Assembly (NCBI GenBank): GCA_028281425.1
Contig: JANQJX010000244.1
Span: 1 to 36,886, forward strand
Length of the DNA: 36,886 nt
From: Simkania sp.
GTDB lineage: Bacteria; Chlamydiota; Chlamydiia; Chlamydiales; Simkaniaceae
Reading direction: 5' to 3'
The translations under genes were made by a program, and so were the position numbers. Position 1 is the first letter of the stretch. Every line of letters starts with the position of its first letter. The notes beneath the pieces are model-generated. The model saw nothing but the letters and a program-made list of their open reading frames with translations. It had not been told where the DNA came from and did not search any database. Below are positions 1,433 to 36,651 of this stretch, in pieces.

Positions 1433-1569
1433 CTAAAATATATGACCTCGGAGTATCCCCTATTTTTCTCTTTAGCGCTACATAGTCACCTAATTTCATC
1501 GGAAAGGAAATTGCTACATCTCACAAACATCCTTATCCAAACCCTCTCTGGATTCTTGTGAATTCTTCT

Positions 1570-3443: not shown

Positions 3444-3465
3444 AATAAAATTTAAAAAACAAACA

Positions 3466-4974: not shown

Positions 4975-5005
4975 GCTTTTAAAATCAGATCAAGAAAAGA
5001 GAAAA

Positions 5006-5091: not shown

Positions 5092-5144
5092 AAAAGGGAA
5101 AAACATTGTATGATATCTATAAGTAAGTATCCAAGCAAGAGGTT

Positions 5145-5357
5145 TTGTACGTGAAAAAGGTTTTAATTTTTTTAGTAAGGCTTTATCAATTTCTCATCCG
5201 CCCCCTGTTGGGACAGTGCTGCCGCTTTTATCCCTCATGCTCTGATTATGCTCTTTGTGCAATCAAGAAATATGGGTCCTTTAAAGGAATTTATTTAACT
5301 CTAAAACGCCTTTGTAAATGTCATCCTTGGCATCCAGGAGGCATCGACTTTCCTTAA
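5145..5357 (+). CDS. yidD: Membrane protein insertion efficiency factor YidD
   Basis: Hallmark motif [12 protein letters not shown]...[12 protein letters not shown]. The track start is TTG at 5145. GTG at 5151 has better spacing to the AGAGG at 5137-5141. The TAA stop (5355-5357) is also the first 3 nt of a family-A MITE. Confidence 0.85.
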
Positions 5358-5700
5358 ACCCCTATCTCTCATTCCCCCTATGGAAAAAGAGTTGCACAAC
5401 TGTTTTCAGAAACGCCAAGAAATTCTCGAATGGATAAGTTTGCAACCTAACCTAAAGGGCCTGCCTTGAAATGGAAAGTCATTGTCTAAAGGATCTTTTC
5501 TCCTTAGGCCTTAAGATAAGTCGCATCTCCTTTTGCTCTCAAGAGTCTAATGCATTTGCACCTTTCACAATTTTCGAAAAAAATCTCAAGGGATCCGAAC
5601 AATTTTTCAGTTCAAGGCAGGCTCCTAAAAGAATTTATCGGATGTGTGAGCGAAACAGAGCATGTGGATTTTTCAGAAAGGGAAAGCGAAATGCGAGCTA
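5355..5700 (+). mobile_element. MITE family A copy interrupted by a nested family-B MITE
   Basis: A-left runs 5355-5456 (...GCCAAGAAATTCTCGAATGGATAAGTTTGCAACCTAACCTAAA). A-right runs 5625-5700 (CTAAAAGAATTTATCGGATGTGTGAGCGAAACAGAGCATGTGGATTTTTC...GCGAAATGCGAGCTA). Removing B and one CTAAA leaves 173 bp, matching uninterrupted copies. Confidence 0.8.
5457..5624 (+). mobile_element. MITE family B copy (168 bp) nested in family A
   Basis: Termini are GGGCCTGCCTTGAA...TTCAAGGCAGGCTC, flanked by the direct repeat CTAAA (5452-5456 and 5625-5629). Collinear with the B copies at 15908, 20643 and 23162. Confidence 0.8.
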
Positions 5701-5706
5701 AAATCC

Positions 5707-6870: not shown

Positions 6871-6985
6871 GATCCTTTGAAAATAACAAAAAAATCACCA
6901 CCCGCCAATAGAAAAAAACAAAAGTTTTCTTTCTTCAATCGATAAAATCTGTTAAAATCGCTCAAAAATATGACCCCCTACATGT

Positions 6986-9391
6986 ATGCTTGTTCCTTTA
7001 TCTTGGCTCCGAGATTACCTTTCGACCGACTTATCTCCCCATCAGTTATCTGATGCAATGACACTTGCTGGCTTAGAGGTGGATCAAATCATCAAAAAAT
7101 CCTTCTCTTTTTCTGGCGTTGTTGTCGGAAAAATTATAGAGGTCAATCCCCATCCTTCTCATGAAAATCTAAAGGTTGCCCAAGTCTTTGATGGAAAAAC
7201 CACTTTGCAAGTCGTCTGCGAAGCTTCCTGTTGTCAAAAAGGGCTTATCACTGCTTTTGCAAAAATAGGTGCAAAGCTTACTGATGCTTCGGGAAAAGTT
7301 TTAGAAATTAAAAAAGCCACTCTATATCAAGTTGAGTCTTATGGAAAGTTTTGTTCAGAAAAAGAACTTCTCTTATCAGATGCTCATGAAAAAATTATGG
7401 AGCTCCCATGGGACTCCCCTCTTGGAACAGATCTCACCCAACTTTTTGAAGATGTGATTCTCGAAGTCTCACTCACCCCCAATTTAGGCCATTGTATGAG
7501 CATATGTGGGATAGCACGAGATCTTGCTGCGATTTTAGATATTCCCTACAAACGTTCTCCTGTTCAATTGATTGAAAATCAAGAAAAAAAAATAGATGAG
7601 ATGATTCAAATCGAAGTCAAAGAAAAAAAGGGGTGTTTACGCTATTTAGCCCGATTACTTCAAAACGTTCAAGTGGCTCCTTCTCCTTTTTGGCTTCAAA
7701 ACCGGCTTCAATCAGCAGGTATTAGGAGGATTAATAATATTGTTGATGCCACAAATTATGTCATGCTTGCATCAGGACTTCCCATCCATGCTTTTGATTA
7801 TGACAAAATAGCAGGACACCAAATAAGAGTCGATCAAACCCAAAAAGAAATTTCTTTTGTAACCTTAGATGAGAAAACAGTCAAAGTTCCTCCTTCTACC
7901 CTTATGATTTGGGATCGAGATAAACCCATTGCTATTGCAGGGATTATGGGAGGCTCTAATTCGCAAATCAGTGAAAATAGCTCCCGTATTTTATTAGAAG
8001 CAGCCCATTTTCATCCCTCTTTTATTCGAAAAGCAAGTCGTAGCATGCATCTTCGGAGCGACGCCTCAAACCGCTTTGAGAGAGAAATTGACCCTAAAGG
8101 CATTGCTCGTGCCCTTGATGAAGCAGCTTCTTTGATCCAAAAACTTGCAAAAGGGGAAATCCTAAAAGGAAAAATTGATGATCATGTTCACTCCTACACC
8201 CCTAAAAAAATCTTTTGTCGTATCGACTATGTCAATCAGATTTTAGGAACAGCCTTTAGTATTGGTGAAATTGAATCTTTTTTAAAACGATTAGAAATGC
8301 AGATCCTCTTCCAAAATGAGGAAAAATTAGAGGTTCTTATTCCTTCTTATCGGAATGATATTGAAGAGGAAATCGATTTAATTGAAGAGATCGCTCGTAT
8401 TTATGGATACAACAACATTAAATCCAGTGAAAAACATGCCATTCATTCGCCTCTTCCTCCGGCACCTCTTTTTCTGGTTGAACAAAAAGTACGCTCTCTT
8501 CTTTTACGCGAAGGACTCCAAGAATTTTTAACTTGCGATTTAATCAGTCCTGAACTTTCCCAGCTCTTCTTAGAAAAAGCCCTTCCAAAAGAAGAACACA
8601 TCCATGTTTTACACCCAACCTCCATTGATCAATCGGTTTTACGTTCTTCTTTACTTCCCGGATTGCTGGTGGCAATTAAAAGAAATTTTGATAAGCAATG
8701 TTTCAATATTTCTGCTTTTGAAATAGGACGTATTCACTTTAAGGACAAAAAACACTTTAAAGAACAATCAACAGCAGCTATTATTTTAACAGGAAATCGA
8801 ACTCCTCATTTCTGGAATCAGCAAAATGAAAAGGTCGATTTTTTTGATCTAAAAGGAATTGTAGAAAACCTCTTAGAAAACTATGGGATTAAAAAAACTT
8901 CTTTTATCCCTTCAAATTTGCAAAGCTTTCACCCTTATAAGCAAGCATTGATTCAAAGCAATGAGATGCAAATAGGAATCTTAGGAGAAATTCATCCTAA
9001 AACATTAAGCGTTCTCAATCTCTCTAAACCTCTTTTCTTTGCACAAATCAATTTACATCCCCTATTTGATCTTAAACCTGGATTTCCTCAGGTAAAACCT
9101 CTGTCTCAATTTCCGGGATCTGATCGTGACTGGACTTTTACTCTCAGTAAGACAACTCCCATCGATATCATTTTAAATGCTATTTCTCGTATCTCTTCAA
9201 AACTCTTAAAAGAGGTTGTTCTACTTGATATTTATGAAAGTGAAAAAATTGGTCACGATCAACGAAACATCACTTTACGTTTGACTTATCGAGATGACAA
9301 AAAAACCCTCACACAAAAGCAAGTAGAAAAAGAACACCATCATCTGATTCATCTTATCGCTAAGAAATTTCATTTATCTTCCCCTTTTTGA
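6986..9391 (+). CDS. pheT: Phenylalanine--tRNA ligase beta subunit
   Basis: Length is 801 aa. N-terminus MLVPLSWLRDYL is typical of PheT. A tRNA-binding OB region (VVGKIIEVNPHPSHENLKVAQV) is present, along with B3/4 and B5 regions and a C-terminal FDX-ACB-like end. Confidence 0.9.
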   Translation: MLVPLSWLRDYLSTDLSPHQLSDAMTLAGLEVDQIIKKSFSFSGVVVGKIIEVNPHPSHENLKVAQVFDGKTTLQVVCEASCCQKGLITAFAKIGAKLTDASGKVLEIKKATLYQVESYGKFCSEKELLLSDAHEKIMELPWDSPLGTDLTQLFEDVILEVSLTPNLGHCMSICGIARDLAAILDIPYKRSPVQLIENQEKKIDEMIQIEVKEKKGCLRYLARLLQNVQVAPSPFWLQNRLQSAGIRRINNIVDATNYVMLASGLPIHAFDYDKIAGHQIRVDQTQKEISFVTLDEKTVKVPPSTLMIWDRDKPIAIAGIMGGSNSQISENSSRILLEAAHFHPSFIRKASRSMHLRSDASNRFEREIDPKGIARALDEAASLIQKLAKGEILKGKIDDHVHSYTPKKIFCRIDYVNQILGTAFSIGEIESFLKRLEMQILFQNEEKLEVLIPSYRNDIEEEIDLIEEIARIYGYNNIKSSEKHAIHSPLPPAPLFLVEQKVRSLLLREGLQEFLTCDLISPELSQLFLEKALPKEEHIHVLHPTSIDQSVLRSSLLPGLLVAIKRNFDKQCFNISAFEIGRIHFKDKKHFKEQSTAAIILTGNRTPHFWNQQNEKVDFFDLKGIVENLLENYGIKKTSFIPSNLQSFHPYKQALIQSNEMQIGILGEIHPKTLSVLNLSKPLFFAQINLHPLFDLKPGFPQVKPLSQFPGSDRDWTFTLSKTTPIDIILNAISRISSKLLKEVVLLDIYESEKIGHDQRNITLRLTYRDDKKTLTQKQVEKEHHHLIHLIAKKFHLSSPF

Positions 9392-9504
9392 ACTTTTCTT
9401 TCATTTTTGTTAATGCAAAATGAGTTTTAGGTTTATCTTCATTTTCCAAGATGATAAGATAGAGAAGTTGGATTACTACAAACTTTAGGTCATGAGGTTA
9501 AAGT

Positions 9505-10503
9505 ATGAAAAGATATTGTTCCTATTTTTTATCTCTTTTTTCACTTGTTGTTATGGGATGTCATTCTAGTCGAGATGAAGACAGTCAAGTGATTTCCAAA
9601 CGCTATATTCATAAATATGGATATGATGTGTCAAAAAAAGAATGGGAATCGGCGAATTACCCAGGTCAAGTCATTTCAACAATGCACAATGGTGTGACCC
9701 TTTCGGTCTCTTACGAAAATGGAATTTTACATGGACCCATGACAGCAACTTACCCCCATTCTCAAACAATTGAATCTTTAAGCATCTATGAAAAGGGGAA
9801 TTTAATCAAAAAAAAGATCTATGATATTCGAGGAACCCCCAAAGAAGAAACAGAATTTCTCTCTCCTTCTCATATCAAAATCTTTCGATGGTTTTTTTCT
9901 GGCACTCCCTTGAGTATCGAAGAATATCACAATAGCGAACTGCTTGAAGGGGAATATTACAATAAGAAAAATGAACTGGAAGCGCGAGTGATCAAGGGGA
10001 AAGGAATGCGTATTACCCGCAATCAGCGAGAAGAAATCGTTGCAAAAGAGACCATTGAAAATGGATATCCCATCTTATCTGAAACATTTCACTCCCATGG
10101 TATTCCTCATACAGTTACACCTCTTTTAGGAGGTCAAATTCATGGTGAAAAAAAAGTTTTTGCCCCTACAGGAGAACCTATTTCTGTCGAAACCTATGAA
10201 AAAAACGTCTTGAGTGGGCTTGCTTATTATTACCAAAATGGTTGTCTCTATCTCGAAGTGAATTATAAAGAGGGTAAAAAGCATGGTTTAGAAAAACATT
10301 ACGTTGACGGGGAAACTATCATTGAAAAAATCAACTGGTATGAAGGTAAAAAACACGGCCCTTCTACTCTCTACTTTGATGATATGTCAAAGGTCAGCTG
10401 GTATTATAATAATAAAGCTGTGACTAAAGATCGCTATCGTCAGCTCATTCAACAAGAAGAAAATATTGCGATTATGAATGATCGTGCAAACGGGCTTAAT
10501 TAA
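9505..10503 (+). CDS. Lipoprotein with MORN-variant (YwqK-type) repeats
   Basis: Lipobox-like signal LFSLVVMGC. Repeated motifs: YENGILHGPMT, YEKGNLIKKKIY, YYQNGCLYLEVNYKEGKKHGLEKHY, WYEGKKHGPSTLYF. Confidence 0.7.
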   Translation: MKRYCSYFLSLFSLVVMGCHSSRDEDSQVISKRYIHKYGYDVSKKEWESANYPGQVISTMHNGVTLSVSYENGILHGPMTATYPHSQTIESLSIYEKGNLIKKKIYDIRGTPKEETEFLSPSHIKIFRWFFSGTPLSIEEYHNSELLEGEYYNKKNELEARVIKGKGMRITRNQREEIVAKETIENGYPILSETFHSHGIPHTVTPLLGGQIHGEKKVFAPTGEPISVETYEKNVLSGLAYYYQNGCLYLEVNYKEGKKHGLEKHYVDGETIIEKINWYEGKKHGPSTLYFDDMSKVSWYYNNKAVTKDRYRQLIQQEENIAIMNDRANGLN

Positions 10504-24434: not shown

Positions 24435-27074
24435 CTATCTATTTAAACGGGGAAGATAAGGAGCAATTTGCCCTTTTCGAGAATTGAGCGTCCCCGCATC
24501 AAAACACAAAATAGCAAGGGGCAAGTTTTTTTCTTTAGAAATTTTTGTTTCGACTCTTCCTGGGGTTTTGATAAAGCTTTCTTTAAAAACCAAAGAAAGC
24601 TCTTCGGCATGTTCTCCTAAAAATTCAATCATGATTTTTTTAACACGTCCTGACCAAGGAGAGGATTTAAAAGAGCTTAAAAAAAGTTTTAATCTTTCAA
24701 CTGCCAGCTCTACATTTGGAATCCAAATCCAAAGTTCATCCAAATGCCAGTAGGAAATTTCTTTCCCTTTAAAAAGATCATCTGCACTTGTCACAGTAGA
24801 AATCATGTGAAGATATAGAAGAACCTCATGATTATGATCATAAAAGTCGACCGATTTTTGATGCCAAATCTCATATAACTTCAACTTATTTTCCTCAAAC
24901 ACAGAGTAATTACGTGCAAAGATTTTTGTCTGACTTACCCGGTTACAGACATTGAGCACTTTTATATCACTAAAAACAGATGACTCCAACTTTTTTGCAC
25001 ACTGCTTTAACTCTTTTTCAATACATTTTTCTTTATAGATATAGATTTTACTATAGAGAGAATAAAAATCTGGATGTTTTAAAAGAGATGAAGCTGCTTT
25101 ACGTGTAAAATATTCATCTTCCTGAATTTCATCAAAATGGATCACTTCTACTTCTTTTTTAAGATGGAGAGATTTTAACCGATTGAGCAAACAAGCCATG
25201 ATTTCAACATCCAAACGAGACACTTTTGTCAAAAGATCGGTATCATCTAAAATCGCATAGACAAAATGGAGATATTCTATAAATTCTCTTTGGGGATCGA
25301 TAAAATAAGAAAAATTTGCCTTTAAAATTTTCTTTTTTTGAAGAAGCCTTTGATAAAGGCGAATCTTTTGAGAAGTTCCCAAATCATTTTGCAAATCTTT
25401 TAATTGCGCTTCTACTTCTTTAAGTGTCATCCCTCCTGTTGCATACTGATCATTGATCTTAAAAGTCATTTCAGCAACAAGAGCATTTGAAGCTTGAGCA
25501 TCTCCGATGATAGCTCTTGGAGGCATATCTGTTGCAAGAGTGCTTTTATGATGGTCAATGACACTAATCACTTCAAGGTAGGAAGGAATGTTCATCTCTT
25601 CCCGGTTGCAAAAATCACGGAGTGTGACAGTTCCAAGAGGTTTTTTTTGAAGATCCACTGCATGAATCACACCAATTGGAACTTTATGGCCATCTAATCC
25701 TGTATGATTCACGGTCATATAAGAATAATTCTTAATCTTTGCTCGAATCTCATCGACATCTGTCCGATGAGTTAAATATTGAGGGATAAAACCAAAAACA
25801 TCTGTTTTAATTTTAAACGCAATTTCCAACCGATCGACAAAAAGGCGAATCAATCTAAATGCATCGGAAAGCATTTTAACTAAAATTTCTAGCTGATTAA
25901 AAATCTTAGGCCTTTTTTCTGTCAATCTTCCAGACCCATCAAAAAGATCGGAAAGAGTTAGAGATCTAAGCCACTCAATTATCTGCGTAAACTTTACAAC
26001 TCCAAGCTCTTCCATATTAAGAGAAAACTCCTCAAATGTTGCTTCTAATCCTTTTTCATTCTGAAGAACTTTGATGAGATAATCATTGACAAGTTTGATC
26101 TGAGTTGGAGGAAGTTCTTTGCAAGGATTACAAAGGCCCAACTTCATATCCAAAAGGCCTCGAATGACCGTTGAGATATGCTCTACTGTCAAATGATCCT
26201 TAGCAAAGCAAGAAATAAGCTGAATGTGAAAATTGGATTCGATCCACATTAAGCAATTATTAAAAATCATGACAATTTGTCTTACACCTTCGACATCAAT
26301 CGTACGCCAATCTCCTAAATAAAATCCTTGATCATCGACAAGAACAATCGCACTACGTCCTCTTTCATGATCGAAATTCAAAGTCAATTCTTGAGTACTT
26401 TTTTGACTCATGCCAGATTGAGTAAGCAGATCAAGACTTGTTAAAGTCAACGAAAGGCGGCTTTTAGATGCCAAATCAAAGATTTCTTGACCAAAGAAAT
26501 CTTGAAAGAGAACTTTGACTTCGACTTGCTGATAAGGAGGTCCCCCTGGGACATTCCAAACATGAAGCCCATCACCAACTCGGGCAGCAAAAGCATCTAG
26601 CCATCCCCAAAATGAAGCAACCAATGTATCTAAATCTGGGGACATATGCGCTGTAACAAAATGGGTCCCCCTATAAGATTTTCCCATCCCAATAGGAAAA
26701 TAGATTTGATAGGCATCACGTGGAATCGATTTGCCGGCAATTTTACTTCGGATAGAGAAATTTTCTTCTCGGCTTAAACCTGAGAATTGATTGAGATAAA
26801 ATTCAAAAGAAGAAAACGTGTAATTTTCTAAAATATTTTCTCGATTGATTCGGCTGATAAACTCAATAACTGCCTTGAGTAAAAAAGAAGACCCTTTTTT
26901 TGACATGATGAGTTTCACAAGCACTTGGCCTACGATTTTATTTTTTTCATGTCCATTAAGGTTCAAAAAGGAAGAAGTTTTAAACTGAGAAAAAATAGAA
27001 TCAAGATCAGAAAATAGATAAACTTGAAATGTGAAATCACCAAAATTTAAGTTTTTGTCACTTTTCTTTTTCAT
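24435..27074 (-). CDS. Large DHH/DHHA2-family phosphoesterase-like protein (879 aa)
   Basis: DHH motif I-like HMSPDLDTLVAS. Motif III VISVIDHHKS is about 350 aa downstream. A DHHA2-like segment follows (FSDIKVLNVCNRVSQTKIF). The long N-terminal extension and the insert have no motif I recognise. Confidence 0.5.
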   Translation of the reverse strand: MKKKSDKNLNFGDFTFQVYLFSDLDSIFSQFKTSSFLNLNGHEKNKIVGQVLVKLIMSKKGSSFLLKAVIEFISRINRENILENYTFSSFEFYLNQFSGLSREENFSIRSKIAGKSIPRDAYQIYFPIGMGKSYRGTHFVTAHMSPDLDTLVASFWGWLDAFAARVGDGLHVWNVPGGPPYQQVEVKVLFQDFFGQEIFDLASKSRLSLTLTSLDLLTQSGMSQKSTQELTLNFDHERGRSAIVLVDDQGFYLGDWRTIDVEGVRQIVMIFNNCLMWIESNFHIQLISCFAKDHLTVEHISTVIRGLLDMKLGLCNPCKELPPTQIKLVNDYLIKVLQNEKGLEATFEEFSLNMEELGVVKFTQIIEWLRSLTLSDLFDGSGRLTEKRPKIFNQLEILVKMLSDAFRLIRLFVDRLEIAFKIKTDVFGFIPQYLTHRTDVDEIRAKIKNYSYMTVNHTGLDGHKVPIGVIHAVDLQKKPLGTVTLRDFCNREEMNIPSYLEVISVIDHHKSTLATDMPPRAIIGDAQASNALVAEMTFKINDQYATGGMTLKEVEAQLKDLQNDLGTSQKIRLYQRLLQKKKILKANFSYFIDPQREFIEYLHFVYAILDDTDLLTKVSRLDVEIMACLLNRLKSLHLKKEVEVIHFDEIQEDEYFTRKAASSLLKHPDFYSLYSKIYIYKEKCIEKELKQCAKKLESSVFSDIKVLNVCNRVSQTKIFARNYSVFEENKLKLYEIWHQKSVDFYDHNHEVLLYLHMISTVTSADDLFKGKEISYWHLDELWIWIPNVELAVERLKLFLSSFKSSPWSGRVKKIMIEFLGEHAEELSLVFKESFIKTPGRVETKISKEKNLPLAILCFDAGTLNSRKGQIAPYLPRLNR

Positions 27075-27652: not shown

Positions 27653-28513
27653 ATGAAAGAACTTTCATTTCAAATTGGAAATGTCTATTTAGGAAAAGAT
27701 CATCCTCTAGTCGTGATTTCTGGGCCTTGCGTCATTGAAAGCCTTTCACATGCTTTAAAAACAGCAGACATGCTCAAAAAAATTTTTAATAAACACCACA
27801 TACAGCTCATTTATAAGTCGAGTTATGATAAAGCAAACCGCTCTTCTTTTACCTCATTTCGGGGGCCAGGTCTTCAAGAAGGTTTAAAAATTTTAGAAAG
27901 GGTGAAAAGAGAGTTTGATCTACCCATCTTAAGTGATATCCATCAAGTCAATGAAGTAAAAGCTGCAGCTGATGTTTGTGATATTATTCAAATTCCTGCT
28001 TTTTTATCTCGTCAAACCGACTTGCTTATTGCAGCAGGTCAATCAAATGCGTGGGTGAATATTAAAAAAGGGCAGTTCATGTCTCCTTGGGACATGGAAT
28101 ATGCAGCTGATAAAATCAGCTCAACAGGCAATCATAAAATCATTTTAACGGACCGAGGAACTTGCTTTGGGTATAACAATTTAGTCTCTGATATGCGTGC
28201 TATTGTGATTATGAAACGATTCGGATTTCCAGTCTGTTTCGACGCTTCTCACTCGACCCAACTTCCTGGAGGAAAGGGAAATCAATCAGGGGGACAATCC
28301 GAATTTATCGCTCCTCTTGCTAAGGCAGCCCTTGCTGTTGGCACAGACCTTCTTTATATCGAATCTCATCCCCATCCTCAAAAAGCAAAAAGTGATAAGC
28401 ATTCTGTACTCTCCTTTGAAGCTTTAAATCCCCTTTTAAAAGAATTAAAATCTATTTATAACCTCATTCACGCAACTGACTCTGGGGACCTTGGATGTTC
28501 AAGCGAGCAATAA
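27653..28513 (+). CDS. kdsA: 2-dehydro-3-deoxyphosphooctonate (Kdo-8-P) aldolase
   Basis: Motifs VISGPCVIES, LIYKSSYDKANRSS, DIHQ, IQIPAFLSRQTDLL, NIKKGQF, FDASHSTQLPGG. Confidence 0.9.
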   Translation: MKELSFQIGNVYLGKDHPLVVISGPCVIESLSHALKTADMLKKIFNKHHIQLIYKSSYDKANRSSFTSFRGPGLQEGLKILERVKREFDLPILSDIHQVNEVKAAADVCDIIQIPAFLSRQTDLLIAAGQSNAWVNIKKGQFMSPWDMEYAADKISSTGNHKIILTDRGTCFGYNNLVSDMRAIVIMKRFGFPVCFDASHSTQLPGGKGNQSGGQSEFIAPLAKAALAVGTDLLYIESHPHPQKAKSDKHSVLSFEALNPLLKELKSIYNLIHATDSGDLGCSSEQ

Positions 28514-29082
28514 GCTTAGCCTTTTTATTTCTAGTCCTTTTATCTGGACTGGTCTTTTTTTGGGTCTTAAAACCTAAAAAATGCCTTCTTAAAAGATTTG
28601 AACCTTCTTTATCTAGAAATAAGGTCAAAAGCTCTTCTTACCAAATACGTCTAGAAGTTCAAAAAGATTTTTGGATTGCAAACCATTTAGATAGGTTGCA
28701 TCATCGTTTAACCAGTCCTCGATCGGTTTTAACTGCCTATCTCCATCAAAACCATTTTGAACTTATCGAAGAATTAGAAGAGATGAAATGTTATTTACAA
28801 GAAGAAGTTTCTGAAAAAGAGCAAACACAACAAATCCGCTTCATCAAATCCCATTTTGGAACCTATGACTACTCCAACCAATCCTTTGAAGCCAATCAAG
28901 TTCATTTAGCTCTTTTTCGCCTTCCCGGAAACCAACTTAAAACCCCTCTCGATTTAAAGTCTGCATTCTTAAAGGGCATTGCATATAAAATTTTTCTTTC
29001 TTTCAGCAGTCACAAACCCTATTTCCATGCTGAAAAATTTCAAGCTCATATTTATCCTGAAAATGATAAAAAAAATTTATGA
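28495..29082 (+). CDS. Membrane-anchored periplasmic protein, LptC-like by position and architecture
   Basis: A single N-terminal TM anchor (ISLAFLFLVLLSGLVFFWVL) and a length of 195 aa resemble LptC. The ORF overlaps the kdsA end by 19 nt and the next ORF by ATGA. No sequence motif is recognised. Confidence 0.4.
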   Translation: MFKRAISLAFLFLVLLSGLVFFWVLKPKKCLLKRFEPSLSRNKVKSSSYQIRLEVQKDFWIANHLDRLHHRLTSPRSVLTAYLHQNHFELIEELEEMKCYLQEEVSEKEQTQQIRFIKSHFGTYDYSNQSFEANQVHLALFRLPGNQLKTPLDLKSAFLKGIAYKIFLSFSSHKPYFHAEKFQAHIYPENDKKNL

Positions 29083-30515
29083 ATCACTCTTTTATCCTTT
29101 TTTTTTCCTTCCTTCTTTTTCCTTTTTTAAGAGGAATAGACTTGCATGAAACTTCCCCAAAAATTTTTTCCGATGATGTTTACTCCGATGGGCAACATCT
29201 TTTACTAAAAGGACATGTTAGAGTCTATGACGCTTTGGGAGTGATGCAAGCGTATGAAGCCGATTTAGAAAAGAAGAAACAAGGTCAAACTCTTTCCAAA
29301 CTCCTCTTAAAAAAAGATGTCTTTCTTTCTTTTCAAGATGAAACAACCCTTCTCTGTGATGAGGCCTTGATTGATTTTATTTCTTGCAAAGGGCATGCTC
29401 TTTCTTTCAAGAGACCCACCTTCTATCGAAGCTTATGGAAACCATCAAAAAAACCTTTTTCCATTTCAAGTGAAAGAATCGATTTCACATTTTCTCAAAA
29501 TGAAGAAAAAAAAAGAACCCTTGAAACCCTCACCGCTTATAAAAAAGTGGTCATTCGCTATGATGAAATGTTTCATCTTCAGTGTGACAGAGCCGTTTTA
29601 GCAAATGAGAAATTAAACACCTTTTCCAATGCTTCTTCTAACTGCAGTCTCACCCATTTTGATAAGACTATTGAAGCTAAAAATATGCAATTGAACCTTC
29701 ATTTACAAACTCTAGAAATGAAAATAGTTCAAGGAAAAATTCCTTCCTTTGTATCAAAAAATCCCCTTCTTCCTTCTTGGTGTTTTTTTTCAGCAAAAAA
29801 GATGATTTGGAATGATCGTAATCACACGATCCTCTTAGAGTCTGATGTCACTTTCTCCGACATCATGATAGGTTCTTTAAACACAGACAACAAACTGCTC
29901 CTTTCCCTGCAAAAAAACCCAAAAAAGCCGGTCATTCAAACGATTCAAACATTTGGAGAAACCACTTTGATCATGAAAGAAGAAAACTCTCATGAAATCG
30001 ACCAATTGAAATGTTTTGGCACTCTTAAACTCGACCCTACCACCTTTGTCTTAAAGGGAAATAGTCCCCAAACCAAAGGAAAAGTTTTATTAACCAATCA
30101 GCTGCTTTTAAAAAAAAAAGACACAACTTTTTATGCCGACCGATTAGATTTAAAATACCACCTATCTCAAGGATCTTTTAAGCCTCTTTCGATGCACCTT
30201 GAAGGCAACGTCCGTTTTATCTCAAAAGATCTGCCCTTTCAATACGGTCTTGCTGATGAAGCCCATTATGATCCAAAAGCGCATGAAATGCTTTTTCTCT
30301 CCAAACATAAGAAGGAAGCTCTATTTTGGCATAAAAAAGAAAATTACATCCTTAGTGCTGACCAACTTTTGATTTCTTTAGATCCCATGACAAAGAAAGA
30401 GAAAATTGAAGGAATAGGCGTCGTGCGCCTCTCTTCTCAGGAAAAAGAAAAACTGAAACTGCACCGATTTTTTCCCAATGCAGTCACCTTAAATCAAGAA
30501 ACAGATCTGCCATGA
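29079..30515 (+). CDS. Secreted OstA/LptA-like protein (enlarged, 478 aa)
   Basis: Signal peptide (FILFFSFLLFPFLRG). Repeated LptA-like strands are present (LLLKGHVRVYDALGVMQAYEADL; MHLEGNVRFISKD). ATGA overlaps occur at both ends, so the ORF sits between the LptC-like gene and lptB. Confidence 0.4.
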   Translation: MNHSFILFFSFLLFPFLRGIDLHETSPKIFSDDVYSDGQHLLLKGHVRVYDALGVMQAYEADLEKKKQGQTLSKLLLKKDVFLSFQDETTLLCDEALIDFISCKGHALSFKRPTFYRSLWKPSKKPFSISSERIDFTFSQNEEKKRTLETLTAYKKVVIRYDEMFHLQCDRAVLANEKLNTFSNASSNCSLTHFDKTIEAKNMQLNLHLQTLEMKIVQGKIPSFVSKNPLLPSWCFFSAKKMIWNDRNHTILLESDVTFSDIMIGSLNTDNKLLLSLQKNPKKPVIQTIQTFGETTLIMKEENSHEIDQLKCFGTLKLDPTTFVLKGNSPQTKGKVLLTNQLLLKKKDTTFYADRLDLKYHLSQGSFKPLSMHLEGNVRFISKDLPFQYGLADEAHYDPKAHEMLFLSKHKKEALFWHKKENYILSADQLLISLDPMTKKEKIEGIGVVRLSSQEKEKLKLHRFFPNAVTLNQETDLP

Positions 30516-31231
30516 TATTAGAAGTTAAAAATCTAAAAAAAATCTATCGAAAAAAAATCGCTGTCAATGGACTTTCTTTGAGTCTCAAAAAAGGGGAAGT
30601 TGTAGGACTCTTGGGCCCAAATGGGGCGGGTAAAACAACCGCTTTTTATATGATCATTGGGCTTTTGCGCCCCGATAGTGGAAAAGTCTTCTTTTTAGAT
30701 CAAGATATCACACCACTTCCCCTTTATAAAAGGGCCCAAATGGGGATAGGCTATCTCGCACAAGAACCCTCTATCTTCAAACAAATGACCGTTGAACAAA
30801 ACCTCATTGCGATTCTAGAGACCCTTCCTCTTTCCAAAAAAAAGCGAAAAGAGCGCTTAGAAGAATTACTAGAAGAACTCAATTTGCATCATCTCTCCAA
30901 AAAACGGGCCTATACTCTATCGGGTGGAGAAAGAAGAAGGCTTGAAATTACACGCGCTTTAATCACTCACCCTACTCTTCTTTTACTTGACGAACCTTTC
31001 GCTAATATTGACCCAATTACCATCTATGATGTAAAACAAATGATTCTCCATCTCAAAGAAAAAAACATCACCATATTAATCACAGATCATAACGCACGTG
31101 AAATCTCATCTATCGTGGATCAAAGCTATCTGATTCAAGAAGGAAAAGTGATGATAGGAGGAACTGTCTCTGAGCTTCTTGAAAATGACGAAGCTAGAAT
31201 CAGCTATTTTGGAAAAGACTTTAGATTGTAA
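30512..31231 (+). CDS. lptB: LPS export ABC transporter ATP-binding protein
   Basis: Walker A GPNGAGKTT, signature LSGGERRR, Walker B LLLLDEPF, H-loop ITDHN. Length of 239 aa and context match LptB. Confidence 0.85.
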   Translation: MILEVKNLKKIYRKKIAVNGLSLSLKKGEVVGLLGPNGAGKTTAFYMIIGLLRPDSGKVFFLDQDITPLPLYKRAQMGIGYLAQEPSIFKQMTVEQNLIAILETLPLSKKKRKERLEELLEELNLHHLSKKRAYTLSGGERRRLEITRALITHPTLLLLDEPFANIDPITIYDVKQMILHLKEKNITILITDHNAREISSIVDQSYLIQEGKVMIGGTVSELLENDEARISYFGKDFRL

Positions 31232-31270: not shown

Positions 31271-32398
31271 TTATGTTAAATTTGCCTTAACTTTAAAAAG
31301 CAACTTTTCTTCTTTCTCTGATATTTCTAAAAGAGAAAAAGCTTCTCTTAAAATCTGGTCTGGAGAAAGTCTCTCTAAACAATCACTTTTAAAGCTTCCT
31401 CCACAACCACTTTGATAACAGGGACGACAAGAAAAATCTCCTTTGACAATACGCGCCTTCTTATTTTGATACGGACTCCAATTGACTTCACATGTAGGAC
31501 CAAAAATAGCAACAGTCTTTTTCTTCAAAGCACTTGCAAGATGTATGGGTAGAGAATCTATAGAAATCAGCAACTTACTCATTGCAATAAGAGCTCCAAA
31601 TTCTTTGAGACTCATCTGACCTGACAAATCAATCGTTCCCGGAGCAAGTGCTCTAATCTTTCGATTCATCTCCATTTCTTCTGGATCTGAGCTTGCAGTT
31701 AAAACAACAACCTCTTTTCTTTTTTGTAAACATCGAATCACCTGAACGACTGTTTCAATGGGAAGTGTTTTAAACATCCATCTCGATACGGGATGGACTT
31801 GCACAAACCGATAAGGAGAGACCCCTTTTTCAAGTAAGAGGCTTTCTATCTTTTTTTTACTCTCTTCTGGAATATGAAAGAAAAGGGACCTCTCCTCAAC
31901 CTTAGGATAAATTCCAAGGCACCGAAGCGCATCAAGGTGTTTTTCAACTGTATGGCGAGGCTTGGGGGTATGTTTAATGATGTGAGTATAACACTTTTTT
32001 TTCCCAAACATTCCTTTTTTTTCTGGATCAAACCCAATGCTGTAAAGAGCTTTAGAAAACCTGCAAGCAAGGGCCCCACGGTCCCCCTCTGTTAAATTGA
32101 TCACAAGATCATATTTTCTCTTTCTAATTGTTTTGAGCAACTTGACTTCATAAAAGAGTCGAGATACCAAGGGAAGTTTTTTCCATTTACGGTCATATAA
32201 AAGAAACTGAGAAATTGCAAAATGCCCTTCTAATAAAGGAAGGGTTTCTTTGTAGAGATACGCATCGATTTCAAGATGGGGATAGGAAGTTTTTAAAATA
32301 GAAAAGAGAGGAGAAGATAGCAAAACATCGCCATGATGACGAAGTTTGGCAACAAGGACACGTTTGAGTCTATTAAAATCAACCGGCTTTTGTCTCAT
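31271..32398 (-). CDS. Glycosyltransferase family 9 (LPS heptosyltransferase-like)
   Basis: N-terminus RVLVAKLRHHGDVLLSSPLFSILKTSYPHLEIDAYL. C-terminal motif LLISIDSLPIHLASAL (consensus GnDSGpmHLAAA). Followed by AIFGPT. Confidence 0.8.
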   Translation of the reverse strand: MRQKPVDFNRLKRVLVAKLRHHGDVLLSSPLFSILKTSYPHLEIDAYLYKETLPLLEGHFAISQFLLYDRKWKKLPLVSRLFYEVKLLKTIRKRKYDLVINLTEGDRGALACRFSKALYSIGFDPEKKGMFGKKKCYTHIIKHTPKPRHTVEKHLDALRCLGIYPKVEERSLFFHIPEESKKKIESLLLEKGVSPYRFVQVHPVSRWMFKTLPIETVVQVIRCLQKRKEVVVLTASSDPEEMEMNRKIRALAPGTIDLSGQMSLKEFGALIAMSKLLISIDSLPIHLASALKKKTVAIFGPTCEVNWSPYQNKKARIVKGDFSCRPCYQSGCGGSFKSDCLERLSPDQILREAFSLLEISEKEEKLLFKVKANLT

Positions 32399-32524
32399 GC
32401 TCCAAAGTTTAACATGAAAATAGAGAAAATAAGGAGAAATTTATTCACACATCTTAAGAAAAACGAGAGATAAACAGTGTGAGAGATTTTGAAAACTGCT
32501 TTTTATTTTGCAGAATGATGAAAC

Positions 32525-33250
32525 TTAAGTTTCAAAGCGATATAAATACTTATTCCAAAGATCCATATCCATTTCTTTGACCATCGCATCTAATTCTAGT
32601 AAAATTCTTTGTGGGCTTTGTTTTGAATAATATAAGATGTCTTTTCCTTTGGATTTTGATTCATGCTGCTGATGGTAGGATTCTAGAATTCTCATCCGAT
32701 AGGCATCCATATGATTCATATAGTCACTTAAACCTCTCTCTTCTTCTCCCAAAAATTTCAAAATCCCTTTTAAAGTTTTTTTAGGAAAAAGCAAGATGTC
32801 TTCATAATACACCAGCAGGCGTCGAGAAGGATCCCAATCATCAAAAAACCGAAACATTTTTAAATAGTAATTGAGATATTGAAAAGCAAAATCTCGAATT
32901 TTCTCTTTTTTTCCGTGCCCTCTTCTTCCAAAATTTCGAAGAAAAATTTCTTTAGGGTTACGAGTCAAAAAAATCAATCGATTTTTAGCGGATGAGATCC
33001 CTTTTAAAGCACTATAATGATGGATACGCAGAAGAGGTTTTTTAGAAAAATCTAAATCGATCAAAAGGAGATTTTCATCTCGACTACTCTTTTCCATCCC
33101 TTCTTGATACACAAATAAACAGGGAATTTTGGCAATGATTTGAAGGGAGCTTATTGTTAAATTTGTTCCTGATCTTGGTGTTGATAATAAAAAAATCTGA
33201 TCCTGCACAAGATGGGGCGGTTCAATCAAAACAAAAGAAGATGCTTCCAA
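32525..33250 (-). CDS. PAPS-dependent sulfotransferase-domain protein
   Basis: 5'-PSB-like loop LLSTPRSGTNL and 3'-PB-like region RLIFLTRNPKEIFLR. Mid-region LLVYYEDILLFPKKTLKGILKFLG is typical of sulfotransferases. The track start is TTG. An upstream ATG (33279) is out of frame by one T in a T9 run. Confidence 0.7.
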   Translation of the reverse strand: MEASSFVLIEPPHLVQDQIFLLSTPRSGTNLTISSLQIIAKIPCLFVYQEGMEKSSRDENLLLIDLDFSKKPLLRIHHYSALKGISSAKNRLIFLTRNPKEIFLRNFGRRGHGKKEKIRDFAFQYLNYYLKMFRFFDDWDPSRRLLVYYEDILLFPKKTLKGILKFLGEEERGLSDYMNHMDAYRMRILESYHQQHESKSKGKDILYYSKQSPQRILLELDAMVKEMDMDLWNKYLYRFET

Positions 33251-33350
33251 AAAAGAGAAACAAAAAAAAACAATTTCATGACATGATGAAGATGGCTTCT
33301 ATTTCGCATACCAGCCCTAAAATAAGAGATGTACGATGTTTTTAGAAACA

Positions 33351-33405
33351 CCCATAAAGTTTCCTTGGGTAAGGTTTGAGAGCTTACCCAAGGAAACTTA
33401 TGGGG
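33351..33405. terminator. Long near-perfect hairpin (about 22-bp stem, 8-nt loop)
   Basis: CCCATAAAGTTTCCTTGGGTAAG-gtttgaga-CTTACCCAAGGAAACTTATGGGG has one bulge. It lies 37 nt downstream of the stop of the 33442-33699 (-) ORF and upstream of the sulfotransferase start. T-tracts are only weak on either strand. Confidence 0.4.
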
Positions 33406-33441
33406 TGCAGAGGTTAGATCTATTTTTTTCTATGATGTTCC

Positions 33442-33699
33442 TTACGGATCCATTTCTTGTTGTCTTCTTTCTTGCCTCTCTAACCTCAAAATTCCTTCGC
33501 GTCGCACTCGCATTGCTTTTTCCATTCTTATGATCTCTCTTCTTTCATCTTCATCTAAATCTTCTGTTTCATCAATAAAATAATTCTCTATTTCATCTTC
33601 AAACTGATCTTCAGAATAAAGCTTTCCAATATTAAAAAAAGAAAAGCAAACAAACAAAAAAAAGGAGAAAACTTGAATATTAAAAAATCTTAAATTCAT
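33442..33699 (-). CDS. Small secreted hypothetical protein (85 aa), acidic then basic
   Basis: Signal-like N-terminus (FFNIQVFSFFLFVCFSFFNIG). An acidic stretch follows (EDQFEDEIENYFIDETEDLDEDE), then Arg/Glu-rich helical sequence. No homology evidence. Confidence 0.4.
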   Translation of the reverse strand: MNLRFFNIQVFSFFLFVCFSFFNIGKLYSEDQFEDEIENYFIDETEDLDEDERREIIRMEKAMRVRREGILRLERQERRQQEMDP

Positions 33700-33991
33700 A
33701 ATTTCACCTTTAACAAAAACGATACGTTTGACTTAAAGATGGTCCTCGAGTCAAAACCTTTTGAGTAGAATTTTTTATTTTTAGCAAAAAAAAATCCCAT
33801 TTCTACAACTATAACACAATGCTTGAATTTTTATTTTAAAATATCGAAAGAAGTGGTTTTTCAATGAGACTCTAAAAAAAATGAACGTAAGAAAATATAC
33901 CGGTTATAATCTTCCAATTATGATTTAAGCGTACTCTTTGTTTGGTGGTTTCAAGTGTCTAGCGCGACAACTCTTTAAAAAAAGATCACTT

Positions 33992-34535
33992 TCAATCATA
34001 ACCGATACATCTATTCCTGCTATATTGGCTTAAATATTTATTGTGGATATCAGGAAAACAGTTTTTTACATACTGGTCAATGGATTCTACTTCTAATCTT
34101 GAGAGGTTTTTGGCATGACATTTAAGATCCCTTCCCTTTGATTGAGAACCTCCAAACCTCGGTTGTGAATCATAATCTAAAGAGCATTTTTTATGATACT
34201 CAAAATCCCGCATAAATTCTTTTAAAGAATTGGCGTTCTCTTTTAGGAAAAGAAGGACTTTTTTCATAGTGCTTTCAAAATCATTTATCAGATCTTCATA
34301 GTAGATTAAAAGCCTATTTAATTCCTTTAAAGGATTCATGAATATCAGAGCTAGAGTTGTTCAAATGATTCCAAATATTATTAAAATTACAATAGTGCCT
34401 AGAAAAGCATTCAATATCATCCCGAACGATCAAAATCAACTTTTCTTGGTTTTTACATGGCTTATCACAACAAAGTATATCATTTGCTCTATGTCTATGA
34501 TCAAATTCCTTATCAGAAGATAGTATCACTATCAT
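33992..34535 (-). pseudogene. Sulfotransferase paralog, frameshifted and 5'-degraded
   Basis: ORF 34314-34535 contains KLILIVRDDIECFSRH (compare RLIFLTRNPKEIFLR). ORF 33992-34339 contains RLLIYYEDLINDFESTMKKVLLFLKE...SQSKGRDL...NKYLSQY, collinear with the C-terminal half of the 32525 gene. They are in different frames. Only a degenerate PSB-like remnant lies upstream (to about 34620). Confidence 0.6.
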
Positions 34536-34661
34536 TTACAAAACTATTGCAAGTTCAACAGTCCTTGCCGTTAAACTCGCGCTTTGCTACCAAAACTAAC
34601 CATCTTTCCAGATTGTTCTTTTTTATTAAACTTTTTTAAATACCAAATTGAAAACCGCTCT

Positions 34662-34830
34662 TAGCCTGCATTTTACGCCACCTCTGGAAAAAGAGCTGCA
34701 CGAATGTTTTCAGAAACGCCAAGAAATTCTCAAATGGATAAACTTGCAACCTCACCTAAAAGAATTTATTGGATGTGCAAGCGAAACAGAGCATGCAGAT
34801 TTTTTCAGGGGTAGCGTAAAATACGGGTTA
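34662..34830 (+). mobile_element. MITE family A, best-preserved copy (169 bp)
   Basis: TIR alignment: TAGCCTGCATTTTACGCCACCTCTGG against the reverse complement of the right end, TAACCCGTATTTTACGCTACCCCTGA, gives 20/26 identical. The core is collinear with other copies. Confidence 0.85.
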
Positions 34831-34983
34831 AATCATTTTCTCTCTTTGATACAGGAAAAAAAATCTCTTTTAACTTTCTTTTGCGTAAGGTGAGTAAAAA
34901 ATGTTCCAAAAAAAATCGGCGTATAAAAATTGTAGCTTCTATTTTATTAATCCCTAAGGTACATTAAGATTATTTTTAAAAAT

Positions 34984-36651
34984 TTGTTGAAAATAGCAAT
35001 GACTAAAAATGCATTAAGGTATTTTGCAGTTTTTTTTACTTTTCTTATTATCTCTTTTCAAATCCATACCTACTCGAATGAAATACAGCAAGAAAAACCT
35101 TTTTCAACAGAAATCAGTCCTATTATTGTTACATTACCTAAAGCAGGAACACATCTCGTTCGAACCATTATAGAACATTTCTTAAAAAAAGAAGGAATAG
35201 GCCCCATTCCTTTTCTTCGAAAGCCCTTTTATCCTAAGCATCAGTTTTTAAATTTACATGTCACAGAAGCTGCTTCTTTGATTGAAAGCTATTGTCGTGA
35301 GTATCCCAATTGCCCTAAAATCTTAGTTGTAAGAAATTTAAGAGATATTGTTGTTTCTGCAAAAGATTTTATAACAAAAACAGGGTTTTATAATTTTGTT
35401 TTTTTTGCTGAGCTCTTTGCAAAATCCATCAATTACACAAAAAATTATGACAAAATCAAAGGAAACAAAGAGCTTAAAAAAATCTGGGATTCTTTGAGCA
35501 ACGATGACAAATTGACCCAATTTATTCAATATTACTACAACTTTAAAAAAAGTCCTGATCAGTTTATGGCACATAATTTGCTTTATTATGTTCAAGACTC
35601 TATTCATTTTTTGCAGAAATATCCAGATACTTTAGTGGTAAGATTTGAAGACCTTTTCGATGAAAATGAATGTATTTCGGTAAAAGAACTTAGAAAAATT
35701 GCAACCTTTTTGGGAAAAAATGTTTCACATAAACAGCTAATAAAAATGTCAAAAGAAATTTATGGGCATTCAAAAAGCCGTACGTACCGAATAGGTAAAA
35801 AAGTGGGACGAAGTGATTTAGAATTTAAAAAACAGCATGTCTCTTTATTTAAATCCTATTTTGAAACTGAAGAAAAAGAATTTAATAGCTACTTTGGTTA
35901 TCCTGACCCCCCACCCCCTTCGGACATTGATTACTTTTCTCTAATTCTTGTGACTATTCCCAAATCTGGAACACGTTTATTAACTAATCTTATTCAACAA
36001 ATTCTTCCTGGTTATCCTTTAACAAAATTTCATGTTCAAAGACGCAATGCAATAAAACAGCATTGCAATCAACATCCTAAGTGTCTTAAAATCTTAATGG
36101 TCAGAAATTTAAGAGATTTGATTCTTTCAAGAACAGATTACACGTCAAGAGAGGGTGTTGTTAAAAATCATCCTCCATTTCTAAGAAAGCACGGAAAACA
36201 AGCTTGGGATTCATTACCCAAACAAAAAAAACTTTCAAAAATCATCGACTGGTTTTACGAATTTAAACAAGTTGATTTTAGACGTCATAACTTGTGCCAT
36301 TATGTAAAAGATAGTATTTGGTTTAAGGAAAGCTATCCCGAAGCATTGGTCTTAAGATTTGAAGATTTTTTTGATGCTCAAGACCATCTAAAAAAAGCCT
36401 CTGTTTCTCAATTAGCCCACTATTTGGGACAAAATTTATCTCAAAAAAGCATTGAACAAATTCTCTCGCAAGTGGATCAAAATAAAGAAGAAAGTGCGAC
36501 CTACCGAAAAGAGAAAAAAGCAAACCGATATTTAGAAGAATTTGATTTAGAAAATAATATAAAGTTTTTACATTACTTTGAAGACTTAGAAAAAGAGTAT
36601 AATGCAGTTTTTGGATATGATTTTTTTCTCAATGAAATGATTGCAAACTAA
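34984..36651 (+). CDS. Two-domain (internally duplicated) sulfotransferase with hydrophobic N-terminal signal/anchor
   Basis: N-terminal TM/signal ALRYFAVFFTFLIISFQIHTYS. Domain 1 has IIVTLPKAGTHLV...PKILVVRNLRDIVVS...LVVRFEDLFD...FNSYFGYPD. A PDPPPPSD linker lies at about nt 35905-35928. Domain 2 has ILVTIPKSGTRLL...LKILMVRNLRDLILS...LVLRFEDFFD...YNAVFGYDF. Confidence 0.75.
   Translation: MLKIAMTKNALRYFAVFFTFLIISFQIHTYSNEIQQEKPFSTEISPIIVTLPKAGTHLVRTIIEHFLKKEGIGPIPFLRKPFYPKHQFLNLHVTEAASLIESYCREYPNCPKILVVRNLRDIVVSAKDFITKTGFYNFVFFAELFAKSINYTKNYDKIKGNKELKKIWDSLSNDDKLTQFIQYYYNFKKSPDQFMAHNLLYYVQDSIHFLQKYPDTLVVRFEDLFDENECISVKELRKIATFLGKNVSHKQLIKMSKEIYGHSKSRTYRIGKKVGRSDLEFKKQHVSLFKSYFETEEKEFNSYFGYPDPPPPSDIDYFSLILVTIPKSGTRLLTNLIQQILPGYPLTKFHVQRRNAIKQHCNQHPKCLKILMVRNLRDLILSRTDYTSREGVVKNHPPFLRKHGKQAWDSLPKQKKLSKIIDWFYEFKQVDFRRHNLCHYVKDSIWFKESYPEALVLRFEDFFDAQDHLKKASVSQLAHYLGQNLSQKSIEQILSQVDQNKEESATYRKEKKANRYLEEFDLENNIKFLHYFEDLEKEYNAVFGYDFFLNEMIAN

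Follow-up and report, generated by a model that had tools for sequence, protein, structure and literature searches.

Putative exported sulfotransferases of the SULT fold beside a conserved lipopolysaccharide gene block in a Simkania contig

We analyzed a cluster of sulfotransferase genes at positions 31271 to 36651 of contig JANQJX010000244.1 from a Simkania sp. assembly (GCA_028281425.1); the entire 36.9-kb contig (36,886 nucleotides [nt]) is referred to here as the window. We hypothesize, with a probability that we would put at roughly 45%, that the cluster is a lineage-specific accessory island of Sec-exported sulfotransferases that have the fold of the cytosolic sulfotransferases (SULTs) and use 3'-phosphoadenosine-5'-phosphosulfate (PAPS), and that it was inserted beside a conserved lipopolysaccharide (LPS) gene block from which it is functionally separate. 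The original prediction, made from the DNA of the window, had placed four sulfotransferase domains next to an operon for 3-deoxy-D-manno-octulosonic acid (Kdo) synthesis and LPS transport (Lpt) and a GT9 glycosyltransferase gene. All open reading frames (ORFs) listed for the region were present at their coordinates, and three of the four domains were found to be intact, the fourth being a relic. What is new, going by the protein sequences, is the export-type N termini, the phyletic bias of the enzymes to intracellular bacteria, and a tandem fusion of two domains.

Identity and integrity of the sulfotransferase genes

The gene at 32525-33250 on the minus strand (extending to 33279 with an upstream ATG start) encodes, as read from a TTG start, a 241-amino-acid (241-aa) protein. 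It had been proposed to be a sulfotransferase, and it scored above the gathering cutoffs of two Pfam profiles, with 34.1 bits against Sulfotransfer_1 (cutoff, 22) and 35.3 bits against Sulfotransfer_3 (cutoff, 27). We use the term type A for this protein and its nine database relatives, from which a profile and an alignment were made. In the alignment, residues S27 and G28 of the PAPS loop (PRSGT; PRSGTNL in the window protein), H77, and the pair R97 and N98 were invariant, and an Arg stands at the position of the 3'-phosphate Ser of the SULTs. When compared with the Protein Data Bank (PDB), the type-A profile found eukaryotic cytosolic SULTs at an E value of 5e-12, with an alignment that spans the PKSGT loop, the catalytic His, and the RNPK[DE] motif. 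The AlphaFold model of the 241-aa protein had a predicted local distance difference test score (pLDDT) of 83.6, and its best Foldseek matches were SULTs with bound adenosine 3',5'-bisphosphate (PAP), at a probability of 1.00; tyrosylprotein sulfotransferases (TPSTs) were also among the matches.

As read, the 241-aa ORF is shorter than all nine of its relatives, which are 258 to 292 aa long. A tract of nine T's (T9; 33262-33270, minus strand) parts an ATG at 33277-33279 from the body of the ORF, and the match to the type-A hidden Markov model (HMM) reaches 33271 in the frame of the ORF. With one extra T in the tract, the corrected reading is MKLFFFCFSFLEASSFVL..., in frame with the ORF, and it begins with MKLFFFCFSFLEASS..., which aligns with the signal-like N termini of homologs; the earlier suspicion of a one-T slip in this gene was thus borne out. 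The upstream ATG (33277-33279), which the T9 tract shifts out of frame, is likely to be the true start. The tract may be misassembled, it may be a genuine lesion, or it may act as a phase (slipped-strand) switch; with T10, the gene would encode a full-length protein bearing the signal.

The gene at 34984-36651 on the plus strand, which stops 235 bases short of the contig end, encodes a 555-aa protein (550 aa from the gene-caller start, ATG 34999) that matched Sulfotransfer_1 at 2.5e-10 and 40.6 bits (cutoff, 22). Its architecture consists of an N-terminal hydrophobic helix, a first domain (~35002-35901), a Pro-rich linker, and a second domain (~35905-36624), and HMM searches, alignment, and AlphaFold all confirmed the view that it contains two complete sulfotransferase domains. 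The two are 35% identical to one another (E value, 4e-46), and both have the invariant residues K53, G55, H92, R117, D121, and S125; their PAPS loops are PKAGTHL and PKSGTRL, in which the Lys and Gly are invariant across the family alignments. AlphaFold (pLDDT, 79.9) placed two separate SULT folds behind an N-terminal helix (residues 2 to 34), and the best Foldseek matches, SULT7A1 and SULT2A1 among them, were PAP-bound sulfotransferases (probability, 1.00). A profile of both halves and their relatives, termed type B/C, found the same SULTs in the PDB at an E value of 1e-16. The 555-aa protein on its own was a poor query: a word-index homolog search returned only the protein itself, so that an exhaustive HMMER search was needed, and a phmmer search of the PDB gave only EF-hand matches, which were rejected as spurious because the family profiles found SULTs. 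Type B/C is rare, with 79 representatives at an E value of <=1e-3 among 1.84 billion, and none of these 79 relatives is a two-domain fusion of the 555-aa kind; one 784-aa relative with three domains and no signal exists.

Profile searches and structure prediction, which had been suggested as a check, placed these domains in the sulfotransferase family, and alignments showed the PAPS residues kept. By alignment and predicted structure, the domains of the window belong to the PAPS-dependent SULT fold, with the PAPS-loop Lys or Arg, the catalytic His, and the 3'-phosphate Arg intact, and the matches of the island ORFs lie far beyond chance. SULTs ranked above TPSTs in every search. The window enzymes had no match to Sulfotransfer_2 or to the heparan sulfate sulfotransferases (HS-ST), and the arylsulfate sulfotransferase (ASST) family was absent from the Pfam matches, the fold matches being SULTs instead. 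A recent transfer from a eukaryote was considered and rejected, since identity to the SULTs is only 12 to 20%.

The relic, a type-A pseudogene at 33992-34535 on the minus strand, is represented by two short overlapping ORFs in different frames. The type-A HMM matched it at 34019-34324 with 75 bits (E value, 2e-24); a match to the region of the 3'-phosphate motif, in another frame at 34383-34457, was nonsignificant (3.6 bits; i-E value, 0.012), and the Pfam score of 18.4 bits fell below the cutoff. Its C-terminal 40% still reads as an open frame, and its middle part carries a frameshift; in-frame stops are present, and the N-terminal third has been lost together with the PAPS loop. The decayed paralog of the 241-aa gene that had been predicted here is therefore real, although it is only 32% identical to that gene and is thus a family member that diverged long ago rather than a product of recent duplication. 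Among the loci compared, which did not include the type-A gene of the window, the best tblastn match of the C-terminal ORF was a Babeliaceae gene (44% identity).

N-terminal segments, distribution, and the source of the sulfate donor

Export was called by a home-made analysis of hydropathy and charge in 89 proteins of the type-A and type-B/C families. A strongly hydrophobic N-terminal window lies ahead of the PAPS loop in 68 of them; by a separate criterion, an uncharged hydrophobic run lies ahead of the loop in 70, with a median length of 16 residues. For those 70 proteins, the mean flank charge was +2.3 on the N-terminal side and -0.1 over the 15 residues that follow the run. The charge of the N flank exceeded that of the C flank in 54/70 (the reverse held in 6/70), and small-x-small motifs followed the run in 42/70. 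The nine type-A relatives begin with a hydrophobic stretch flanked by K or R and then have small residues (for example, MKKILIGSLFFLLCLNA followed by SD), and the 555-aa protein begins with an anchor-like, 20-residue uncharged run. Judged by run length and polarity, these are the segments of predicted Sec signal peptides or of anchors with the N terminus inside and the C terminus outside (N-in/C-out), and the earlier argument that hydrophobic N termini point to export is, as a prediction, well supported across the family. The segment is missing from homologs that are expected to reside in the cytoplasm, namely, those of a giant-virus metagenome-assembled genome (MAG; L021) and of a free-living member of the Bacteroidota (L012; Cyclobacteriaceae), where the gene lies in a sugar-biosynthesis cluster.

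The sulfotransferase homologs come mainly from bacteria with an obligate intracellular life, namely, Chlamydiae and Babeliales. Type A was found in MAGs of the Chlamydiae and of the Babeliales (Dependentiae). Type B/C is present in the cultured Simkania negevensis Z as a solitary gene in an unrelated context (WP_013943899.1) and also in Anoxychlamydiales, and a metagenome scan with a narrower type-B/C alignment found one short contig (L023). One locus has a lone sulfotransferase gene after secA (L015), another has five type-A genes in tandem (L005), and at two more (L016 and L017) type A occurs with type B, Sulfotransfer_2, or glycosyltransferases. The homolog in the giant-virus MAG (GVMAG-S-ERX556106-38, 5953-6618) is a type-A-like sulfotransferase that scored 78 bits with the family HMM; it hints that amoeba-associated bacteria and giant viruses may share genes.

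Two contexts are relevant to the question of where the enzymes act and what feeds them. A 1.9-Mb contig of an uncultured member of the Chlamydiae (L003; CAWHDP010000002.1) has a block encoding a NodZ-like fucosyltransferase, TauE, CysD, CysN, an MFS protein, adenosine 5'-phosphosulfate (APS) kinase, glycosyltransferases, and sulfotransferases, the last being three of the Sulfotransfer_1 type by homology (two type B/C and one type A) and one Sulfotransfer_2. The APS kinase gene (6628-7197; Pfam, 8e-46) has a signal-like start, MPKYLFLFLSFIAAANA, with an AAGGA ribosome-binding site 8 nt upstream, and it has no alternative start codon. On a Babeliaceae chromosome (L009; OY969927.1), the region 430-9555 adjoins a type-A homolog and encodes three GT2 enzymes, one GT6 enzyme (ABO-type), two FkbM methyltransferases, two other S-adenosylmethionine (SAM) methyltransferases, and two ORFs without a family match. 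All eight ORFs with a family match start with a K-rich hydrophobic N terminus, and the region looks like a Golgi-like set of signal-bearing, glycan-modifying enzymes.

In the mechanism that we propose for the island, the sulfotransferases would cross the inner membrane by Sec, and their site of action would be the periplasm, the cell surface, or the lumen of the host vacuole. PAPS, ATP, SAM, and nucleoside diphosphate sugars (NDP-sugars) are cytoplasmic in bacteria, and because bacteria keep no PAPS outside the cytoplasm, the donor would probably be host derived. Host nucleotides must cross the outer membrane and the periplasm to reach chlamydial nucleotide carriers, and carriers of PAPS belong to the SLC35 family. 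Host PAPS could reach the enzymes across the outer membrane, as nucleotides do on their way to the chlamydial import carriers, or be brought in by a host SLC35-type carrier that has been recruited. The most likely candidate for the acceptor is a glycan or glycolipid exposed at the outer surface of either the bacterial envelope or the vacuole; such an acceptor is favored because a close relative of the window (L001, described below) has a polyprenol-phosphate GT2 gene and sugar-activation genes and because other sulfotransferase loci cluster with glycosyltransferases. A mechanistic precedent for such a supply is found in Chlamydia trachomatis, where secreted GlgA works on host UDP-glucose that is carried into the inclusion lumen by a recruited SLC35 carrier, SLC35D2 (PMC4829429). 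The likeness lies in a chlamydial transferase that acts outside the cytoplasm on a host-activated donor; the enzyme family, the donor, and the use of type III secretion differ, and PAPS is not known from any chlamydial vacuole.

Several observations weigh against this mechanism. The mechanism presupposes a supply of PAPS outside the bacterial cytoplasm, which is hypothetical, and the N-terminal segments might instead be anchors that stay uncleaved. Small molecules and steroids, rather than glycans, are the substrates of the nearest relatives with solved structures. The third PAPS motif (R-K-G-x-x-G-x-W) is degenerate in the domains of the 555-aa protein (YRIGKKVGR and YRKEKKANR); remoter type-B/C relatives retain it (FRKGKIGxWK). 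The island also shows decay, in the form of a frameshifted start and one pseudogene. Finally, L003 places cysD, cysN, and an APS kinase with a hydrophobic N terminus beside the sulfotransferases, an arrangement that agrees no less well with a membrane-anchored machine drawing on PAPS made by the bacterium.

The last point leads to an alternative, which we consider unlikely, in which the segments are anchors at the inner face of the inner membrane and the enzymes use bacterial PAPS to sulfate a polysaccharide or glycolipid before its export. The cytoplasmic location of such donors in bacteria agrees with this alternative, as does the way in which L003 ties sulfotransferases to TauE, cysD, cysN, and an APS kinase that has a like N terminus; in L009, glycosyltransferases and SAM methyltransferases bear such segments too. 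However, the N-in/C-out polarity seen in 54/70 proteins argues otherwise, a median run of 16 residues is short for a transmembrane helix, and small-x-small motifs were present in 42/70. Furthermore, the segment is missing from the free-living bacterial and giant-virus homologs, and gene annotation bore out the earlier observation that no cysDN or cysC genes are in the window.

If the sulfotransferases are Sec exported, as we favor, they might be part of something broader. We entertain, with considerable doubt, the idea that obligate intracellular members of two unrelated phyla, the Chlamydiae and the Babeliales/Dependentiae, run a Golgi-like extracytoplasmic toolkit for glycan modification, made up of exported sulfotransferases, glycosyltransferases, and methyltransferases, all bearing a signal segment, and supplied with activated donors of host origin (PAPS, NDP-sugars, and SAM) that get into the periplasm or vacuole. 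The island of the window would be one example. With such a toolkit, the bacterium could sulfate its own surface or host glycoconjugates without PAPS synthesis, and old reports of chlamydia-associated sulfated glycans might gain a genetic basis.

The neighboring LPS block

The LPS block, on the plus strand, consists of kdsA (27653-28513; Pfam DAHP_synth_1, 8.7e-77), an LptC-like gene (28495-29082), a gene for a 478-aa LptA-like protein (29079-30515), and lptB (30512-31231; Pfam ABC_tran, 3.3e-38); the LptC-like and LptA-like assignments were made by synteny only. The GT9 gene (31271-32398, minus strand) is, as had been described, convergent to this kdsA-lptB unit. Its product matched Pfam Glyco_transf_9 at 1.8e-29 and the NCBIfam model TIGR02201, "heptosyltransferase III," at 231.1 bits (cutoff, 170.2), with residues 13 to 323 aligned to positions 1 to 310 of 344 in the profile. 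It is a putative LPS heptosyltransferase III. Orthologs with 50 to 68% identity that are annotated as "putative LPS heptosyltransferase III" are present in S. negevensis, Simkaniaceae MAGs, Neptunochlamydia, Rhabdochlamydiaceae, and others. From these orthologs we conclude that the source of the window is a Simkaniaceae-like environmental chlamydia in which GT9 is not new; the premise of a classical truncated chlamydial LPS holds for the Chlamydiaceae and not for the family of Simkania.

In three other Simkaniaceae (L018, L019, and L020), the gene for an 879-aa protein, kdsA, Lpt-like genes, lptB, and the convergent GT9 gene are all kept; there are two Lpt-like genes in L018 and L019 and a single 201-aa ORF in L020. 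The order kdsA, LptC-like, LptA-like, lptB is common to these three loci and L001. In the window, the 879-aa protein (24435-27074) and the LptC-like and LptA-like proteins (28495-30515) had no Pfam or NCBIfam match, yet their position is conserved in the Simkaniaceae. On the far side of GT9, L018 to L020 have ndk, mreB, and unrelated ORFs, and the family HMMs detected no sulfotransferase-like sequence near GT9 in any of the three. We also considered whether sulfotransferases could be hidden among the ORFs upstream of GT9 in other Simkaniaceae and rejected this, as no HMM match was obtained.

Sulfotransferases beside GT9 were found only in the window and in its close relative L001, a 759-kb MAG contig from ENA (ERZ26858540 ctg224429) whose neighboring genes are 57 to 90% identical to those of the window. 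The L001 cluster has a type-A gene, a small ORF, and three separate type-B/C genes instead of the fusion. Beyond the cluster, at 226-5985, L001 encodes a transaldolase, a PgfS/ArnC-like polyprenol-phosphate GT2, an epimerase/dehydratase, an SDR protein, a Gfo/Idh/MocA oxidoreductase, an HddA-like GHMP (heptose-7-phosphate) kinase (175 bits, below the cutoff), and a nucleotidyltransferase (NTP transferase); the window contig stops short of that point. Together, these L001 genes may encode a pathway of the GDP-heptose type, from which GT9 or a glycosylation step in the periplasm could be supplied. In the window, the G+C content of the island is 31.7%, versus 36.4% for the rest of the contig, and the value for third codon positions (GC3) is similar; we therefore rejected a strong compositional island signature.

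The original prediction had read the location of the sulfotransferase genes as a sign of an extended, possibly sulfated envelope glycolipid. In that explanation, sulfation of LPS or an envelope glycolipid would be coupled to GT9: that enzyme would lengthen the Kdo-lipid A core, its addition would be sulfated by the neighboring sulfotransferases, and the whole would form a single locus for LPS modification. We judge this to be improbable. The adjacency of kdsA, the lpt genes, and GT9 to the sulfotransferases recurs in two genomes, and L001 continues into an ArnC/PgfS-like polyprenol-phosphate glycosyltransferase and sugar-nucleotide genes, which are typical periplasmic-face modifiers of LPS or surface glycans and would thus work on the side of the membrane where exported sulfotransferases would lie; but the window and L001 are close relatives and amount to effectively one observation, and L018 to L020 have the LPS-GT9 block without sulfotransferases. 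Moreover, the sulfotransferase families occur at unrelated loci in other Chlamydiae and in Babeliales, the type-B homolog of S. negevensis included, and GT9 lacks a signal segment and acts in the cytoplasm. The link to sulfated or extended LPS is accordingly weak. As far as gene order and sequence comparison indicate, GT9 is a conserved neighbor that lies outside the sulfotransferase island, and the adjacency to the Kdo, Lpt, and GT9 genes is one evolutionary event at a synteny break rather than a conserved association. The inference of sulfated LPS from the place of these genes is tempting, but here that place is no sign of it.

Relation to known systems and the remaining features of the window

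In the literature library searched, we found no paper linking sulfotransferases with Simkania, environmental chlamydiae, or Dependentiae, which bears out the claim that these sulfotransferases had not been described, and none that was relevant for a heptosyltransferase in Chlamydiae. These proteins carry only generic annotations, such as "sulfotransferase domain-containing protein." To our knowledge, the bacterial PAPS-dependent sulfotransferases that have been characterized are cytoplasmic. The periplasmic bacterial sulfotransferases that the library did contain are the PAPS-independent ASSTs, which are unrelated. An exported PAPS-type family that occurs mainly in intracellular bacteria would imply either an unrecognized supply of PAPS outside the cytoplasm, most simply by theft from the host, or a sulfation machine of an unusual, membrane-anchored design, and either outcome would change the view of envelope and vacuole chemistry in environmental chlamydiae. 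S. negevensis is cultivable and has the homolog WP_013943899.1, so that it offers a testable model.

With the eukaryotic cytosolic SULTs (SULT1, SULT2, and SULT7; PF00685), the window enzymes share the fold and the PAPS logic, that is, the PKxGT loop, the catalytic His, and the RNxxDxxVS motif, with FRKGxxGxW in relatives. They differ in the low identity given above, with TM-scores of ~0.55 to 0.6, and in three chlamydial features, which are the N-terminal export or anchor segment, the one tandem two-domain fusion, and the type-A Arg in place of the 3'-phosphate Ser. The Golgi sulfotransferases, which are type II membrane proteins fed by SLC35B carriers, are similar in having an N-terminal signal or anchor and a catalytic domain outside the cytosol, and the clustering with signal-bearing glycosyltransferases at L003, L009, L016, and L017 recalls them; however, the window enzymes fall outside those subfamilies, no transporter was identified, and the compartment would be the periplasm or the host vacuole. 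The periplasmic ASSTs of Enterobacteria and Sutterella carry signal peptides of the Sec or Tat kind and act outside the cytoplasm (PMC10932419). They are PAPS independent, ~600 aa long, and of an unrelated fold, in contrast to the PAPS motifs and SULT fold of the window enzymes. RaxST/RaxX, NodH, Stf0, LpsS, and BT_0416 resemble the window enzymes in being of the PAPS type and in being encoded beside acceptor genes, RaxST beside its small peptide substrate. Export signals are not known from that group, whose genes are as a rule linked to others of the cysDN/cysC type, whereas here a signal is predicted, the window has no PAPS genes, and the catalytic base is His rather than Glu.

The comparison with RaxST concerns the small gene at 33442-33699 on the minus strand. 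It had been described as encoding a small secreted protein with acidic and basic parts, and the 85-aa product does have a hydrophobic N terminus, an acidic patch (EDEIENYFIDETEDLDEDE), and, after it, a basic helix rich in Arg and Glu. A 94-aa ORF at the matching position of L001 shares 39% identity with it, with the common motif DETED..E.ERREIIR..KAM, and a metagenome scan found no relatives beyond L001. Its Tyr sits within EIENYFIDETEDLDEDE, in the acidic context EIENYFIDETED. Since a Tyr in a run of Asp or Glu is the classic sulfation context of TPST substrates, RaxX/RaxST-like sulfation of this residue, giving a sulfated effector or mimic, could be envisaged, but we regard it as very unlikely. 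In its favor, the gene lies between sulfotransferases in the window and in L001 alike, with a conserved acidic aromatic patch. Enzyme and peptide both bear predicted export signals, most type-A members have a TPST-like PRSGT loop, and TPSTs were among the fold matches. Nevertheless, the Tyr column shifts between the orthologs (NYF in the window versus DFY in L001, where the sequence reads RDFYLDETED), and no such small gene accompanies any other sulfotransferase locus, the one in the window being the only small secreted acidic-Tyr ORF near sulfotransferases in the 22 loci searched. The catalytic base of TPSTs is Glu and that of cytosolic SULTs is His; the window enzymes have the His of the SULTs, which also outrank TPSTs in the searches. 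Neither the window nor 20 kb of L001 has a peptidase-ABC exporter or PAPS-synthesis genes.

Very unlikely too, in our view, is that the island consists of eroding, largely nonfunctional accessory genes: the clear pseudogene, the homopolymer frameshift at the type-A start, the degenerate third PAPS motif of the fusion, the low G+C content, and the long intergenic spacers would fit, but three domains have retained long open frames with every key residue after diverging to 36 to 67% identity from L001, the frameshift may be an assembly error, and the TTG start still leaves a full catalytic domain.

Between the 85-aa gene and the type-A gene lies a near-perfect hairpin (33349-33407, not assigned to a strand) with 25-nt arms and a 9-nt loop, which has no counterpart in the equivalent spacer of L001. 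An 81-aa ORF between the relic and the 555-aa gene (34648-34893, plus strand) had no family match and may be spurious or a remnant. Scans of the window for promoter and terminator consensus sequences gave results not above shuffled expectation, and the only Rfam matches were two tRNAs. The gene content of the contig is otherwise ordinary and chromosomal, with recO, a gene for an ankyrin-repeat protein, pheT, rpsD, nfo, hemA, rluD, and the two tRNA genes. The ankyrin-repeat protein (2430-3443; 337 aa; Ank_2, 2e-30) is a typical eukaryote-like effector candidate of intracellular bacteria.

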